Assembly: GCF_011045215.1 (NCBI RefSeq)
Contig: NZ_CP049201.1
DNA from: Escherichia coli
GTDB lineage: Bacteria; Pseudomonadota; Gammaproteobacteria; Enterobacterales; Enterobacteriaceae
Strand: one strand, 5' to 3'
Length of the DNA stretch: 64,000 nt
A model generated the notes under the pieces. That model saw only the letters and a program-made list of their open reading frames with translations, did not search any database and was not told the DNA's origin. Made by a program: the position numbers and the translations under genes. The number at the start of each line of letters is the position of its first letter. The first letter of the stretch is position 1. Of the stretch, positions 43,874 through 53,818 are shown piece by piece.

Positions 43874-44980
43874 TCATACTAGTCGGAGCGAAGCCCTTGA
43901 TGGTGTTCTTTTGTTATTTCCGCCACTAATTGCCGCAACTCCATAAAGCAAACTACTCAATTCATCGAGAGGTACGTTAAGCTCATTACTCAAGTGAGCC
44001 AGATAAATGCCGTCTCCAGCCAGAGCAGTCATCATTTTTTCTATAACGAGTGATCTTTCGCGCTCAATTCCCCCCGGCTCACCGGTTCGATACCCCTTTG
44101 CCGTCGCATCACGCATCAAACTATTATACTGCCATTCCGTCAGCATATTTAGATTGCGCATTCTGACAATCAGGGCCATAGCCGAAACTTTCCAGAGTGA
44201 TTTCAATTGCACAATTTTATCAAACGTCGGGACCACCATCTTAACGGCCATCACGTTTTCCTGAGGCATTAGAAATGCAGAAGCAAAAGCATCCGCTTCA
44301 CGCTCAGCATCCTGCCCTTTGACTTCCCCTTGACGATGAAGTACTAGGTGAGCCAATTCATGTGCGGCATCAAAACGGCTGCGTTCACCTGACTTGCGTG
44401 TGTTAAGAAAGATATAAGGAACATCATCTTTCCAGAACGAAAAAGCATCAATACTCGCTGTTTCCTCTGAAAGCCAGAACACCTTAACTCCAAATTTCTC
44501 AAGTAGATGAACAACATTGGTGATACTCTTCTTACCAATCCCCCAAGCCTCGCGTATCGCTTGGGCAGCGACCTCAGGCTCACTTCCACGGAGATTCGGC
44601 AATTGAGGCGAAGGAAGAGTAAAGCGAGCATTAAAATAATCGCTAAGCATAACCCCTAAAGCACCTGCACCAATTGCCGCATGCTGGTCAGCAGCTTTTG
44701 TTGTGCGTAATGAACGAAATGAAACAGTCAATGGATCAATTGTTTCAACATCATCGCCAAAGAAAAAAGCCTCTGGATAATTTAAAGCACTAGCGTATGC
44801 GCGTACCGTCTCTGCCGTGGGTGCATAAAGACAATAATCTTTTTCGTATTCAATTACGATACGACTAGATAACCCGGTTCGCCTCGCCAGTTCTGCCAAG
44901 GTCAGTTTGCGTCTGATCCGCGCTAGCTTTAGTCGAGACGGATTAAAAAGACGTTTGACATCATCAACAGTGTTACTCAT
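43874..44980 (-). CDS. XRE-type HTH + ImmA/IrrE-family zinc metallopeptidase fusion protein
   Basis: N-terminal HTH (LARIRRKLTLAELARRTGLSSRIVIEYE); HEXXH motif with downstream Glu/LMP (AAHELAHLVLH...EREADAFASAFLMP); ATGA start/stop overlap with upstream gene. Confidence 0.8.
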   Translation of the reverse strand: MSNTVDDVKRLFNPSRLKLARIRRKLTLAELARRTGLSSRIVIEYEKDYCLYAPTAETVRAYASALNYPEAFFFGDDVETIDPLTVSFRSLRTTKAADQHAAIGAGALGVMLSDYFNARFTLPSPQLPNLRGSEPEVAAQAIREAWGIGKKSITNVVHLLEKFGVKVFWLSEETASIDAFSFWKDDVPYIFLNTRKSGERSRFDAAHELAHLVLHRQGEVKGQDAEREADAFASAFLMPQENVMAVKMVVPTFDKIVQLKSLWKVSAMALIVRMRNLNMLTEWQYNSLMRDATAKGYRTGEPGGIERERSLVIEKMMTALAGDGIYLAHLSNELNVPLDELSSLLYGVAAISGGNNKRTPSRASLRLV

Positions 44981-45648
44981 TTGCTTTCAACTGAAATTGA
45001 TATGTCATCATCAAAATCCTGTTCAGGGAAAATATCCGCACCTTCAAATTGCAGAGGAGCTAAAATAATTCGCTCACTCCACGCGCTTACTCTGGCAAAT
45101 CCGTCCTGATTCACCATCCCTACCGGATACGACACCTCACAGCGAATTTCTTTATTTGCCGCATCATAATAATACAGAACGATATAAGTTCGGGTGCTAT
45201 CTATCGGCGTGATCTCAGCTTTGCCTGAATGTAAGGTATCTGCTTGGAACATATCGAATGTACCCGGATTGTTGTGAACAATCGAGCGAGTTGCCTCTCC
45301 CTTTGCATTTTTGGTTTTAGGCAATCCATCAGGACGCCCGGTATGTCCGTCACCTGAGGTAATAATCAGATTAACCCCTTTGCTTGAATTAACGACCATT
45401 TCCATGCGATTGACTACTTCAGAAGACCAGCCGTTACCCTTACCAATCAGAATACGGCGAAGCGCGGCAACCATCTCACTCCAAAAGCGGAATCCAGCAT
45501 CCACTTTAGGGTGGAGCTTACTGGATTTGCGTCGCTCGTATAAAGCAGACATTAACGCATCGCGAATATCATTTTCTGTAAAGCCCAGTTTACTAAGTAC
45601 AAAATCCGAATCAATTCCTGTATGCAGAACACAATGAGGCATATTCAT
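44977..45648 (-). CDS. Hypothetical protein, partner of the HTH-peptidase gene
   Basis: ORF with GGGAG RBS before MNMPHCVLH...; stop overlaps next start (ATGA); no family recognised by eye. Confidence 0.6.
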   Translation of the reverse strand: MNMPHCVLHTGIDSDFVLSKLGFTENDIRDALMSALYERRKSSKLHPKVDAGFRFWSEMVAALRRILIGKGNGWSSEVVNRMEMVVNSSKGVNLIITSGDGHTGRPDGLPKTKNAKGEATRSIVHNNPGTFDMFQADTLHSGKAEITPIDSTRTYIVLYYYDAANKEIRCEVSYPVGMVNQDGFARVSAWSERIILAPLQFEGADIFPEQDFDDDISISVESK

Positions 45649-45884
45649 GAAAGTTTCTCCCATCACTTTTACTTCATGATTTTATCATAAAATTTATGCA
45701 AAAATCAAGAAGTGACACCCTGCAAGCGATTGTAGACTTTCTCTTGTTTTCTTACGTTCCTGCTCTCCAATTGCGCAATTGATTTCTTCAACAATATGAG
45801 AGTACACATCATAAACCTCCGACTGCAGCCAGCAACCGGAGCCTCATTCTTCAGATACCAGAACAACTCACTGCGACCTATTCG

Positions 45885-50005: not shown

Positions 50006-50628
50006 TTTTGAATCACCGTTGTTGCATAGGAATAAATAAAAGGGAGTTTTACATATTTCTGGTCAATGGCATCTTTCAGAAAATAGCCTATACCATCACC
50101 ATATTCTGGTATCTGAATAGAAAAAACACTGTCCGATACAGTCACGCTCACATCAAAAGTGTGCTGCAACGGCGGGTCTATTCCGTTTTTTCCATGAATA
50201 AAGCGCGCCACACGGCGCTTTAACCAGTCAATGCAGAAATGCGAACCGTCAGCCTTGTAAAAATTCCACGTTAATATTCGTTTGAAATAATCATCCGGAA
50301 CATACGATGCCTGCCCCGGAACATAATTCCGCATTGCCGCATAAGGGATTGTATTGTATTCAATGGTATCGTATGCGCCGCGTGCAATAGCCTCCTCGGA
50401 AACCTGTAGTAAAGGCCTTTCAACGCCATAAATCCCGAGAGCAATCCAGTCCAGCAATTGCCCGGTTATTGATTCCGATGTCCAGCATGGCAATGCCAGA
50501 TTGTTGAGTGAATCGAGGTATTCCTGAGCAATTTCATTGTATGCATCAAAGAACGCAACAACATTCGGATCATCTCTGTACTGCACAAACGGATAAGCAG
50601 GGAGAATTTTTTCAGTCAGATATTGCAT
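50002..50628 (-). CDS. Baseplate protein (gpI-like, by position)
   Basis: Lies between J-like gene and fibre; start placed at MQYLTEKILP to limit overlap. Confidence 0.5.
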   Translation of the reverse strand: MQYLTEKILPAYPFVQYRDDPNVVAFFDAYNEIAQEYLDSLNNLALPCWTSESITGQLLDWIALGIYGVERPLLQVSEEAIARGAYDTIEYNTIPYAAMRNYVPGQASYVPDDYFKRILTWNFYKADGSHFCIDWLKRRVARFIHGKNGIDPPLQHTFDVSVTVSDSVFSIQIPEYGDGIGYFLKDAIDQKYVKLPFIYSYATTVIQK

Positions 50629-51838
50629 ACTTGTTAACTTGAACCTGTGATGCCACCGTCGAAAAATAGGAATAGGTATCGCCATAAACCAGGCTTGTGT
50701 CTTTTGCCGGAGGAACAATATGGCCATTAATGCCAATGCTCACACTGATTGTTGAGATCAACGTCGCATCAACCAACAATCTGACGGAACTGGTAAAAAT
50801 ATCCTGGATTCGCAGCAGATTTATCGGGTGTCCGACTTCAATAGAATTGATGTAATCAGCAACGTTTTGCTGCACAGCCATAGCAATACCCGCCGGATCA
50901 ACATAATCATCAGATACAGTGTTCCAGGTGATTAGCACCATGACGTTTTGTGATGACGGGATAACGAACGGCACCTGATAAACATCTGGCGAAACGGTTA
51001 TTGAAACCGTGCGTTTTTCCACTGCCGCACCAGATGGATTGCTAACATCGTTGGTCAGTTTCGAAATATCCGGTACAGATTTGTAAATAGCATAAGCCAC
51101 ATCATACGGATCACCGCCACCAACAACCGCAACCCATTTCCCCAGCGACGACTGCCGGAAAGAAATCAGGTTTTCTCGCACACCGCTTACTGATTTGAGC
51201 ATCGCTTTAAAGCAATCCGGTGTTCCCTGCACACCAAACATGCCGGACTCCATGACTTCGGCGCGGTAAGATGCCCACGTTTGCGCCTCCTGACCTGGCA
51301 TCCCTGCGGTAAGGTTCGTGCATTTTACAGGCTGATCTTTGGGTACCGATGTAATGACCTGCGTTACGGTTCCTTCCGGTACAGCCCATGAGCCTGACGT
51401 TGTGGCCACACAGTAGACTGGCTCAGTCTGCCCGCTTTCCGGCACCACCGTATCGCGGGAAACTGCATACTGGTAGTTGCCGTCACCGACAACAAATCCT
51501 TTAGGGATACCAAACCCCGGCAACGCCTCAAACACCACGTATACCGCCGTATTTGTACTTAATCCCTTCTGTGCTCCATAAATGTTTCCGAGTTGCATCA
51601 ATAACGGAATATTTGCGCCGTATGGGCTTACGGAGTTAATAAGGTCCACCCGCGCCTGGTCTATTAATGCCAGCGCCCCGACTGCCGTGCTGGCAAGGTC
51701 AGTAATAAGCCCCGCCGGAAGGTTGGCTGTATATCCAGGTACTTTTTCAGCAACTCTGATGATAAGATCTGCAAGCAAATCATTGGGTGGCGTAGGCTGC
51801 GCCCCCGCACTGGTCATAGTAATTGGTATTTCTGACAT
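50612..51838 (-). CDS. Baseplate wedge protein (gpJ/gp47-like, by position and size)
   Basis: 408 aa; GGAG RBS; order W - J - I - fibre typical of contractile-tail baseplate clusters. Confidence 0.55.
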   Translation of the reverse strand: MSEIPITMTSAGAQPTPPNDLLADLIIRVAEKVPGYTANLPAGLITDLASTAVGALALIDQARVDLINSVSPYGANIPLLMQLGNIYGAQKGLSTNTAVYVVFEALPGFGIPKGFVVGDGNYQYAVSRDTVVPESGQTEPVYCVATTSGSWAVPEGTVTQVITSVPKDQPVKCTNLTAGMPGQEAQTWASYRAEVMESGMFGVQGTPDCFKAMLKSVSGVRENLISFRQSSLGKWVAVVGGGDPYDVAYAIYKSVPDISKLTNDVSNPSGAAVEKRTVSITVSPDVYQVPFVIPSSQNVMVLITWNTVSDDYVDPAGIAMAVQQNVADYINSIEVGHPINLLRIQDIFTSSVRLLVDATLISTISVSIGINGHIVPPAKDTSLVYGDTYSYFSTVASQVQVNKYAISD

Positions 51839-51850
51839 ATTTACTCCATT

Positions 51851-51876
51851 AAAAAACCCGCTTTCGCGGGTTTTTT
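51851..51876. terminator. Intrinsic terminator immediately after the moron gene and 13 nt before the J-like gene
   Basis: AAAAAA-CCCGC-tttc-GCGGG-TTTTTT, perfectly symmetric. Confidence 0.75.
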
Positions 51877-51878
51877 AC

Positions 51879-53054
51879 TTATTCAACCTCTTCTAAACTG
51901 CTCACTCTGGACCCTCGGCGGAAATTATCATCATTTTTAACATACTCGTATGAATCCAGAATCAAACCAGATATGCGAAGTATATCTTCCGGATTAGTTA
52001 TATGTATCCTTTTACCATCCGTATCAAGTCGAGCTCGTCTTATTTCATTCAACTGAACTTCACTAAGCGAAATAGGTAAAGTTATAAATGAAGATTTTTT
52101 ATCATAAAATCTTAACAGCCATCTATTTGTTTTACCATTCAATAGTACACCGAAATATGACTCAGTATCTTTATATTCTATATTATCTTCTGTTTGTATG
52201 ATTTGTTTTACCCTTTCAAATAGCTCCAATTCTTTGGCTGTGGTTATTATGTTGGGGTTTTCTTCATCAACAATGGCGTTATTAACTTGTGTATCCGTTG
52301 CATCATTTTCTTTAGTTTGCTCTACCGGTTGTGTAGATAGCCCGGAAACCACCATTGCGCTAACAGCGCGCTCAACGGCCTGTTTAACTAATGGAGTCAC
52401 GAACTCAAGAAATCTCTGATTAAGTTGTCTCTCAATATTTGAACGACTAGCAACATATCGAACAAACTCCAGATCAACTTCACGAAGACTAGAACTGATT
52501 GTTTTAGTAAATGAATTCAAATAAACACTTTCTTCAGCCAGTGTCCGTAAAGCCTCTGGTTTGAATTTATCATAACGAAAACGAAATAATTGTGTAATAT
52601 CGGAGTGAGTTAGAGAATCCATTCTTAATTTTAAAAACGGCGTTGAATCCATTATGTTTTTTTGTTTCAAATCCGTAAAAAAACGCCATTCAACACCATT
52701 TGTAATGGCTGATATAGTAACTTCCGGTGTTGAATTAAAATATCTTGATAGCTGTGGGCAGTGATTATCAATTTGTTCTGAAAACGATTTCGCCTCAATG
52801 AACATCACAGGAACATCATGACAAAATAAAGCGTAATCAACCCGTTCATTAGCCTTAACCCCGGGGAAGTCAGCACTATACTCAGCTTTGACTTTTCTTG
52901 GATCATACGGAGTAAAACCAAGAATATCTAGTAATGGCATAATGAGTGCTTGTTTTGTCGTTTCTTCAGTTGTACAAAACACCCCCATTTTTGCAACATG
53001 CTCTGTGTGTATTTTTAACTTATTTGCAAAATTTTCCATGCTTGTCTCCTCCAT
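51879..53054 (-). CDS. Orphan HsdR-N-like PD-(D/E)xK nuclease-domain protein (AT-rich moron; candidate defence gene)
   Basis: N-terminal motifs ETTKQALIMPLLDILGF / RVDYALF / VMFIEAKS / QLSRYF / AITNGVEWRFF as in type I R-subunit N-domains; C-terminal ~270 aa unassigned; AT-rich; likely start at second ATG (53039) after GGAGGAG. Confidence 0.7.
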   Translation of the reverse strand: MEETSMENFANKLKIHTEHVAKMGVFCTTEETTKQALIMPLLDILGFTPYDPRKVKAEYSADFPGVKANERVDYALFCHDVPVMFIEAKSFSEQIDNHCPQLSRYFNSTPEVTISAITNGVEWRFFTDLKQKNIMDSTPFLKLRMDSLTHSDITQLFRFRYDKFKPEALRTLAEESVYLNSFTKTISSSLREVDLEFVRYVASRSNIERQLNQRFLEFVTPLVKQAVERAVSAMVVSGLSTQPVEQTKENDATDTQVNNAIVDEENPNIITTAKELELFERVKQIIQTEDNIEYKDTESYFGVLLNGKTNRWLLRFYDKKSSFITLPISLSEVQLNEIRRARLDTDGKRIHITNPEDILRISGLILDSYEYVKNDDNFRRGSRVSSLEEVE

Positions 53055-53188
53055 GGTAACAATATGTATTTTGCAAATCCGAAATAATATATGTCAATAT
53101 GCTCCAGCTTAGAAAATTACTCGCCCCCCTAAAATATCTCTCTACAGCACTCCAAACCAAGGTAAAAGTTTTATCATAAAACTGTGAT

Positions 53189-53536
53189 TCATACCGGCAC
53201 CTGCGTCCGGTAACTGGTCCCATTAAAAAACACAACATCGATGTTATAGGTGGGGTTATCTGCTCCATCTACCTTTGAAATTGCCAGTGATGCAAAATAC
53301 CCAGCAAACTGTTGCTGAACCATGTTCACATAGTAGTCTGGGTAAATCTGCTGCACGATGCACTGCTGCGCAGGAATACCGTAATTCGCGTAAAACGGCG
53401 ACTCCCCCAATCCCAGCTTTAACGTCTGAATGAGCGTCGTCAGCCAGCCGTAGGAGAAATCACCGTTGGCGTCAGATTCTACTGCAACCCATTTTTTGTT
53501 GCCGTTCGCGTCGGTGACGCGGCCCCATGTTCTCAT
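53189..53536 (-). CDS. Baseplate protein (gpW/gp25-like)
   Basis: 115 aa; LKLGLGESPFYANYGIP resembles the gp25/W-family core; position before J. Confidence 0.5.
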   Translation of the reverse strand: MRTWGRVTDANGNKKWVAVESDANGDFSYGWLTTLIQTLKLGLGESPFYANYGIPAQQCIVQQIYPDYYVNMVQQQFAGYFASLAISKVDGADNPTYNIDVVFFNGTSYRTQVPV

Positions 53537-53736
53537 CGTGCCCCCATCACTTTAACTAACTCTGTCAGTACTGGTGAAAAGGCAAATGCTAAAGCTACGA
53601 GTGCAGCGGTGTAATACATGCGTCGTAAGGTATTGCTTTTTGCCACTAATTTTAAGGCTTTCACAATCCAGTCTCCTCCGCTAAAATTAATCACGGAAGA
53701 CCTCCAAACATACGTAATCATCCCTTGCGTATTCAA
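53533..53736 (-). CDS. Small hypothetical protein with hydrophobic C-terminal segment
   Basis: 67-aa ORF overlapping W-like start by 4 nt; TAALVALAFAFSPVL stretch; coding status unverified. Confidence 0.35.
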   Translation of the reverse strand: MNTQGMITYVWRSSVINFSGGDWIVKALKLVAKSNTLRRMYYTAALVALAFAFSPVLTELVKVMGAR

Positions 53737-53747
53737 GGTGAGAAACA

Positions 53748-53786
53748 GAAAACCCCGACTGGGCCAACAGTCGGGTTTTTCGTTTT
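53748..53786. terminator. Intrinsic terminator-like hairpin between spike gene and downstream baseplate genes
   Basis: CCCGACTG-ggccaa-CAGTCGGG with flanking A/T runs on both strands. Confidence 0.55.
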
Positions 53787-53818
53787 ATGGTCAGAATTTA
53801 AAGTGAAATGAACCGGTA

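Follow-up and report, generated by a model that had tools for sequence, protein, structure and literature searches.

A solitary HsdR-type nuclease gene in a variable slot of a Rac-type prophage baseplate operon, a candidate phage-exclusion factor

Solitary restriction nucleases that act independently of a methylase, many of them borne by prophages, include the type IV enzymes McrA (of prophage e14), Mrr and MspJI, and SduA of the Shedu system is a gated PD-(D/E)xK defence nuclease. Temperate phages also carry single genes or pairs directly behind their repressor; bstA has such a repressor-downstream position, like rexAB, and was described by its discoverers as expressed in the lysogen (PMC8585504). 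Here we describe a gene in a stretch of 64,000 nucleotides of Escherichia coli DNA (contig NZ_CP049201.1 of assembly GCF_011045215.1; the window) that joins an HsdR-type PD-(D/E)xK nuclease domain to an unrelated C-terminal domain and lies as cargo in a variable slot of a prophage baseplate operon. A model had read this stretch from its letters and open reading frames (ORFs), and we followed up this sequence-only reading computationally; the region is 99.7% identical to that of E. coli strain C7, which carries a Rac-type prophage there. We favour, with a probability of about 0.42, that the protein is a methylase-independent nuclease that would act in the lysogen to exclude superinfecting phages or other incoming DNA by cutting it.

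Domains of the cargo protein

In the N-terminal part of the protein, we found matches to the Pfam families HSDR_N (3.9e-8, as the sequence-only reading had expected) and HSDR_N_2 (9.7e-8), and there was no further family in the protein. The motifs that had been quoted for this part (LIMPLLDILGF, RVDYAL, FIEAKS, QLSRYF and TNGVEWRFF) are all present. Among 101 diverse relatives, Pfam finds HSDR_N in 100 and HSDR_N_2 in 99, and no other family. The alignment of these relatives shows no variation at residues E30, D73, K89, Y105 and G120 and a conservation of 99% at E87 and Q101 (residues are numbered in the 391-aa frame of the ORF; subtract 5 for the 386-aa protein). We take these conserved residues, by assignment from EcoR124I HsdR, to form the motifs of an HsdR-type nuclease: a helix glutamate, the D..ExK triad and the QxxxY element. 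An AlphaFold2 model made from the alignment has a mean predicted local distance difference test score (pLDDT) of 92.3 and a predicted template modelling score (pTM) of 0.63; it shows the canonical alpha-beta-beta-beta-alpha-beta core at residues ~25–140, and the packing of the domains against each other is undefined. Judged from sequence and model, the nuclease fold is real and the catalytic site is intact, and nuclease activity is predicted.

Behind the nuclease domain follow a helical middle region, which is moderately conserved and without a Pfam family, and an acidic disordered linker, which across the family is 10–47 aa long, has a median isoelectric point (pI) of 4.2 and is poorly conserved. 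The sequence-only reading had recognised nothing in the C-terminal ~270 aa. This needs correction: Pfam gave no family for the C-terminal domain or for 46 homologous ones, but the last ~110 aa, modelled alone (pLDDT 91.5, pTM 0.81), confidently adopt a predicted YdhG/YjbR/MotA-CTD-like fold. When we ran Foldseek with this domain against AFDB50, we recovered essentially this family only and one DUF5655 protein, and when the Protein Data Bank was searched by sequence, both the protein and a profile of 101 sequences hit a haemagglutinin and a chemoreceptor by chance and nothing else. One family member of 509 aa (P0164) has a partial TerD domain at its N-terminus (Pfam, 4.9e-10); this case is isolated, could be a gene-call fusion and is the only fusion partner that we found among the longer family members.

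RefSeq calls the product a 'type I restriction endonuclease', and a true type I restriction R subunit, or the decayed remains of one, would be in keeping with both Pfam matches and with a weak partial match to NCBIfam PRK11448. We leave this reading with next to no probability. The PRK11448 match scores 18.9 bits against a cut-off of 729 and covers 57 residues, there is no hsdM or hsdS gene here or in any sampled locus, and the two-module architecture of HSDR_N and C-terminal domain, 350–400 aa in length, is conserved across phyla and is not an HsdR fragment. A type I R subunit is ruled out by the missing translocase domains together with the unrelated C-terminal fold. The RefSeq name is thus a misnomer, because the label of one domain was transferred to the whole protein. 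The orphan status that had been claimed for the gene holds: Pfam finds no helicase domain in the protein, and the annotated parts of the near-identical C7 prophage contain no hsdM, hsdS or other methylase gene.

A family of single genes behind prophage repressors

The protein matches PHROG 4225 ('endonuclease') over the full length of the profile (9.8e-149, residues 6–375 against positions 1–357 of 357). We found 1354 homologues at E<=1e-5 (90% clusters); representatives at 50% identity number 3356 at E<=1e-3, of which 290 reach E<=1e-30, and most have 340–400 aa. Full-length homologues occur in phages of at least six phyla-level host groups, with Klebsiella, Clostridium, Enterococcus, Lacticaseibacillus, Porphyromonas, Streptococcus, Corynebacterium, Fusobacterium and Pseudomonas among the hosts, and homologues are also found on plasmids, including those of Borrelia. 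A minority are solitary chromosomal genes without a conserved partner, as in Gilliamella, in Edwardsiella (beside an insertion sequence (IS) and a Fic/Phd pair) and at one GntR-adjacent locus. Because these solitary copies have no conserved neighbour, they indicate a self-sufficient single-gene function.

To describe the genomic niche of the family, we surveyed 80 loci in IMG/VR that were found with a 10-sequence alignment. The baseplate context of the window copy recurs at 23 of the 80 loci, at identities of at least 98%, and two loci are Q-adjacent. In 50 of the 52 divergent loci with enough upstream sequence, a repressor homologue on the same strand lies directly upstream of the gene, at a distance of 9–173 nt. 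These repressors are of three unrelated types: CI with an S24 domain, RacR-type and short helix-turn-helix (HTH). In lambdoid prophages of Citrobacter and Morganella, the gene starts 22 or 9 nt after a CI repressor (HTH and S24 domains) on the same strand; a RacR-type repressor precedes it in Klebsiella phage KpF5, in a related prophage and in E. coli PCN061; and a short HTH repressor precedes it in a Salmonella Mu-like prophage and in E. coli STEC384. In Streptococcus pneumoniae phage IPP25 the gene lies between the integrase and the repressor, and in a Firmicute prophage it is part of the lysogeny module. Homologues also adjoin HicAB in Porphyromonas phages and, at locus L055, a toxin-antitoxin (TA) pair and an antirepressor.

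Two further observations concern the surroundings of homologues. In the Stx2 prophage of E. coli JNEC-KY177 (locus L014, 7968–9125), a homologue with 78% DNA identity runs antisense to the late operon, between the Q antiterminator gene and tRNA/stx2AB; this place near the Shiga toxin (Stx) genes, too, is a classic one for cargo. Orphan DNA methyltransferase genes (Dam-like D12 class or others) stand 0.1–2 kb from homologues at loci L016–L018 (9230–10000), L014 (9939–10997) and L029 (9270–10064). We rejected them as partners: they are absent from the parts of the window prophage that were examined and from the Citrobacter loci (four), they are parts of other operons, and their background frequency is uncontrolled.

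Because the family sits downstream of prophage repressors and, in Gram-positive hosts, in lysogeny modules, the idea of anti-phage defence or superinfection exclusion, which the sequence-only reading had proposed from composition, fold and position, gains support. In the mechanism that we favour, the lysogen would express the protein, which would cut the DNA of superinfecting phages or other incoming DNA without a methyltransferase partner and so protect the cell and the prophage. The C-terminal domain would target or gate the nuclease; it may recognise a feature that is absent from the resident genome, or it may hold the nuclease inactive until such a feature appears. This reading finds company in the same prophage, which carries a bona fide RosmerTA defence system at its right end, adjoining uspF (window 43874–45666, minus strand). 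The 368-aa ORF of this pair (43874–44980) matches RmrA of PADLOC at 5.6e-143 and the 229-aa ORF (44977–45666) matches RmrT at 1.3e-59, and RefSeq names them 'helix-turn-helix domain-containing protein' and 'hypothetical protein'. A gene of the family type is present in a phage-resistant Campylobacter jejuni strain and absent from a sensitive relative, which is circumstantial (PMC8713573).

Several findings weigh on the other side. PADLOC-DB v2.0.0 (2023) has no family that matches the full protein at E<=1, although the same library finds RosmerTA, and with the domains split the only match is a chance-level one to REase_II (E 0.009). The protein is less obscure than the 'possibly uncharacterised' factor that had been suggested, as it belongs to a large catalogued and RefSeq-named family; at the same time, we found no study of the family's function or anti-phage activity in the papers searched. 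The window copy lies in a baseplate operon and not behind a repressor, and its expression in the lysogen is predicted from a consensus promoter match only. In relatives, its slot holds the regulators Ant and Rha or proteins of unknown function, and no PADLOC model matches any of these. Some family members stand among housekeeping genes. The C-terminal domain is about neutral (family median pI 6.5) and its fold is no known reader of DNA modifications; because its net charge is near neutral, DNA binding by this domain is possible but not indicated. The favoured reading also offers no way for the genomes of host and prophage to escape cleavage.

The niche behind the repressor is also that of the abortive systems RexAB and BstA, and the protein could be an abortive-infection effector, in which the C-terminal domain or the oligomeric state restrains the nuclease until a phage protein or nucleic-acid cue frees it, host and phage DNA are degraded, the cell dies and the burst is lost. 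A gated toxin fits with the lack of a methylase or other visible self-protection, tethered domains with a disordered linker suit autoinhibition, protein-binding chaperone-like proteins are among those closest in fold to the C-terminal domain, and HicAB and other TA genes are neighbours at some loci. Set against this, no trigger, toxicity or autoinhibitory contact has been shown, and domain packing is undefined in the model. We regard such an effector as rather unlikely, although it is the alternative to be taken most seriously; direct cleavage of invading DNA is favoured over this trigger-released mode, and no result separates the two.

Nucleases of the PD-(D/E)xK fold are also common in phage recombination and repair, PHROGs places the family in the category 'DNA, RNA and nucleotide metabolism', and recET or exonuclease genes lie a few kb downstream at several loci. 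The protein might work on DNA in the service of the phage itself, for example in recombination or repair, in the processing of replication intermediates or in the degradation of host DNA on induction, and not in defence. We consider this a good deal less likely than an abortive role. The gene is accessory: the baseplate region is found in 99 of 5426 complete E. coli genomes, 24 of these 99 carry the cargo gene, and any homologue is present in only 32 of the 5426 genomes. It follows the repressor on the repressor's strand and is not in the early lytic operons, it occurs as a solitary gene in chromosomes, and its nuclease type is that of restriction enzymes.

Taken as a whole, the family may be a large uncharacterised group of single-protein immunity nucleases in the immunity regions of temperate phages whose hosts range from Proteobacteria to Firmicutes, Bacteroidota and Actinobacteria; in this family, an HsdR-type nuclease would be targeted or gated by a sensing domain of the YdhG/YjbR/MotA-CTD fold that had gone unrecognised. 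If so, the family would make a new class of methylase-independent restriction or of abortive defence, and the fold would have a new function. We offer this generalisation tentatively and hold it with clearly less confidence than the favoured reading of the window copy, exclusion by direct cleavage.

The cassette and its slot in the baseplate operon

The gene lies on the minus strand in an ORF of 391 aa (51879–53054) between genes for proteins of 408 aa (50612–51838) and 115 aa (53189–53536), in agreement with the single ORF of ~386–391 aa that had been reported. Two in-frame ATG codons can begin it: the one at 53054 gives 391 aa and the one at 53039 gives 386 aa. The start is probably ATG 53039, because GGAGGAG with a 6-nt spacer precedes it, because RefSeq annotates a 386-aa product (WP_000426902.1) at the same place in the 99.7% identical E. 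coli locus, and because exactly this 386-aa protein is present on 697 contigs.

The block 51845–53188 had been described as AT-rich, and its GC content of 0.357 (window, 0.496; J gene, 0.492; upstream gene, 0.500) is indeed the minimum among all 1344-nt windows of the 64 kb, with a fraction of 0.0005 at or below this value. The GC content at third codon positions is 0.258 in the cargo gene and 0.46–0.60 in neighbouring genes. Past the stop codon of the cargo gene, at a distance of 2 nt, begins a symmetric terminator (AAAAAACCCGC-GAAA-GCGGGTTTTTT) with a 12-nt perfect inverted repeat and a folding energy of –17.4 kcal/mol (z –4.8; 0 of 200 shuffles folded equally well). The perfect hairpin of the sequence-only reading thus stands, and its distance to the J start at 51838 is 12 nt and not 13. 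Our pattern scanner missed this terminator because the A and T arms pair, and we took a sub-threshold Rfam match to rsmX over it (29 bits against a cut-off of 56) as chance. The ~134-bp AT-rich upstream region with a candidate promoter is likewise there: the leader (53055–53188) is 134 nt long with a GC content of 0.356 and holds the predicted site TTGACA-18-CAAAAT. Promoter-like sites number 10 in the region as compared to 5.8 ± 2.4 expected, by consensus matching only. We read the block as an autonomous cargo cassette of a promoter-like site (predicted), one gene and a terminator, with foreign composition. The coordinates of all features are collected in Table 1.

Table 1. Features of the cargo cassette and its flanks (window positions; residues in the 391-aa frame)
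Feature	Position	Strand	Basis or remark
Baseplate J/gp47-type wedge gene (downstream flank)	50612..51838	-	RefSeq (gp47/J-type); PHROG 6, baseplate wedge subunit, 1.2e-37
Exchangeable cargo slot	51846..53179	.	blastn of the window against relatives with other cargo (loci L002, L003, L011, L012, L013)
Intrinsic terminator, symmetric, potentially bidirectional	51851..51876	.	A6-CCCGC-GAAA-GCGGG-T6; sequence, fold, inverted repeat
Stand-alone HsdR-type nuclease coding sequence	51879..53039	-	386 aa from ATG 53039; ORF list, RefSeq, PHROG 4225
C-terminal alpha/beta domain, residues ~269-375	51930..52250	-	YdhG/YjbR/MotA-CTD-like fold (model); conserved T271, T272, E275, D296, Y300, R315
Acidic disordered linker, residues ~241-268	52251..52334	-	pLDDT ~50
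Helical middle region, residues ~141-240	52335..52634	-	Helices 166-191, 195-204, 213-240; AlphaFold2 pLDDT 88-97
N-terminal PD-(D/E)xK HsdR-type nuclease domain, residues ~25-140	52635..52982	-	Key residues E30, D73, E87, K89, Q101, Y105
Shine-Dalgarno-like GGAGGAG	53046..53052	-	6-nt spacer to ATG 53039; read from sequence
Promoter-like site TTGACA-18 nt-CAAAAT	53068..53097	-	Predicted; consensus 10/12, best in 51500-53600; within the AT-rich leader of 134-149 nt
Conserved 115-aa tail-cluster gene (upstream flank)	53189..53536	-	PHROG 7986, function unknown; no Pfam match

In the same stretch, an 11-nt perfect inverted repeat (ATTTGCAAAAT / ATTTTGCAAAT) lies at 53022–53032 and 53068–53078, with one arm over the predicted –10 hexamer and the other within codons 3–6 of the 386-aa ORF. 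The two arms might be paired operator-like sites, or the repeat may have arisen by chance in this AT-rich stretch.

When we aligned the window with relatives that carry other cargo, we found that homology ends at 51846–51858 on the left and at 53178–53179 on the right. The usual occupant of the slot is an Ant antirepressor module; the cargo that relatives carry in place of the nuclease gene includes an antirepressor (Ant or AntA/AntB), encoded on the opposite strand and accompanied by a ~180-aa hypothetical protein, an LprI-family protein and other unknowns. None of the related E. coli prophages that we inspected has an empty slot. The flanking genes, which the sequence-only reading had held to be normally adjacent, are never so in any relative examined; the block is a moron in having its own terminator and a distinct composition, but other cargo and not a direct junction takes its place in relatives. 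The site, then, is not one where an insertion has parted two neighbouring genes but a swappable accessory slot that resembles an immI (antirepressor) region. We also considered the slot as a proven defence hotspot and dropped this idea because its alternative occupants are no recognisable defence genes. The divergent homologue at locus L066 echoes the slot theme, as it follows an Arc-like repressor and stands beside a Rha/Ant-like gene and a baseplate-hub gene. A megablast search of the phage collection turned up no match to the block.

In six strains, among them 214-4, F9792 and the O169:H41 isolates, identity is 99.8% over the cargo gene but only 97.8% over the 3.9-kb baseplate region around it. 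Because the identity of the gene exceeds that of its flanks, the alignments suggest that the cassette was recently exchanged among Rac-type prophages. Such a pattern (99.4–99.8% over the cassette even with flanks at 97.8%) could also be left by a selfish, free-standing homing-type endonuclease like I-TevI that spreads by cutting cognate sites in related phages; a nuclease with a flexible linker and a small putative binding domain fits this idea, as does the intergenic presence and absence of the gene in a conserved operon. We think it very unlikely. No insert-free target allele exists among the related E. coli prophages inspected, where the alternatives carry unrelated cargo, and there is no common target sequence, since the family lies behind at least three unrelated repressor types and at other sites; DNA homology to the Stx-prophage copy, moreover, stops at the ends of the coding sequence. 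A 12-nt perfect direct repeat (CCATTAAAAAAC) that brackets the block might be counted for homing, but it could be a coincidence, since chance alone predicts about one repeat of this kind in the region. Its left copy (51846–51857) coincides with the left homology breakpoint, and its right copy (53220–53231) falls within the 115-aa gene, at the 3' end.

The very low GC content of the gene, with no partner and no proven promoter visible, would also fit a prophage-stabilising toxin or a silent, functionless acquired gene, for example one that H-NS silences through its AT-richness. This we find improbable, in much the same degree as homing. An intact ORF of almost the same sequence is found in 24 complete E. 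coli genomes and in 23 IMG/VR contigs. Throughout the family, residues of the catalytic site and of the C-terminal domain are conserved, which implies purifying selection on a function, and there is no antitoxin candidate conserved beside the gene.

Strain C7 carries a complete Rac-type prophage, which is integrated at ttcA and comprises intR, xisR, ralR, recET, kilR, a RacR-like repressor, ydaS/ydaT, a Q-like gene and a contractile-tail-type baseplate cluster; its end adjoins uspF and ompN. In this strain, an IS3-family element (locus L001, 34743–35956, outside the 64-kb window) breaks the head-gene region, and the NUDIX and DUF2213 genes are pseudogenised. The C7 copy is probably defective because this element interrupts the head-gene region. 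With regard to the genes that flank the slot, the J-like label given to the downstream one agrees with RefSeq and PHROGs (Table 1). The W-like label of the upstream one does not hold, as we sought a gpW/gp25 signal in the 115-aa gene with Pfam and PHROGs and found none; its baseplate role is a reading from position only. A second, smaller variable slot lies at 53537–53818, between the 115-aa gene and the gene of a 237-aa 'phage baseplate protein'. Homology stops there at 53550 and resumes at 53648–53732, and some relatives have a Rha-family regulator at this place; the window has only an unannotated 67-aa ORF with a TTG start (53533–53736), a hydrophobic C-terminus and no PHROG match.

Comparison with known systems

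If the favoured reading is true, a family of thousands of members that is mislabelled as 'type I restriction endonuclease' would gain a function as a compact single-gene phage-exclusion nuclease, which would be among the commonest occupants of the repressor-downstream (rex) slot in temperate phages. Its small C-terminal domain would have a first function, in sensing or targeting, and the baseplate slot of Rac-type prophages would be an exchange place for immunity-related cargo. Should the inference fail, a widespread annotation error is still corrected and a variable slot documented.

Type I HsdR subunits share with the cargo protein the N-terminal PD-(D/E)xK domain with its D..ExK and QxxxY motifs. 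In contrast to them, the 386-aa protein and its 101 relatives lack, as judged by Pfam, the superfamily 2 (SF2) translocase (ResIII/DEAD and Helicase_C), and where HsdR has a C-terminal helical domain that docks to the methylase, the cargo protein has the predicted alpha/beta YdhG/YjbR-like fold. The nuclease module resembles those of type I HsdR and of type IIG/IIL enzymes (EcoR124I HsdR, 2w00; an HsdR fragment, 3h1t; BpuSI, 3s1s; DrdV, 7lo5). Unlike the type IIG/IIL enzymes, the cargo protein has no methyltransferase or target-recognition module; it carries instead a domain of ~110 aa on a flexible linker.

With regard to the type IV enzymes and Shedu, the domain appended in the cargo protein differs from the SRA, EVE, winged-helix and Shedu N-terminal domains, and no PADLOC model for these systems matches the protein. 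The combination of domains is absent from the 2023 defence catalogue, and prophage-borne solitary defence nucleases are already known as a kind. DefenseFinder reportedly lists a single-gene system named 'FS_HsdR_like', which is said to be encoded by phage-inducible chromosomal islands (PICIs) and to come from work of Fillol-Salom et al. in Cell in 2022; its name points to a solitary HsdR-like protein, here on a phage-related mobile element and with anti-phage activity reported for it. The chance that it belongs to the same family as the cargo protein is perhaps one in three, and if it does, the anti-phage activity would already be known and only the mechanism would be open.

Like the morons of lambdoid phages, the cassette consists of a promoter-like site (predicted), one gene and a terminator, has foreign composition and lies inside a late operon. 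It differs from them in that no relative has the two flanking genes side by side, the place being a swappable slot that otherwise holds Ant-type modules. The proteins of lambda rexAB and BstA of Salmonella phage BTP1 are unrelated to the cargo protein, and the window copy lies in a baseplate operon; in other phages, however, the family takes the same position as these systems, directly behind the repressor and on the same strand.

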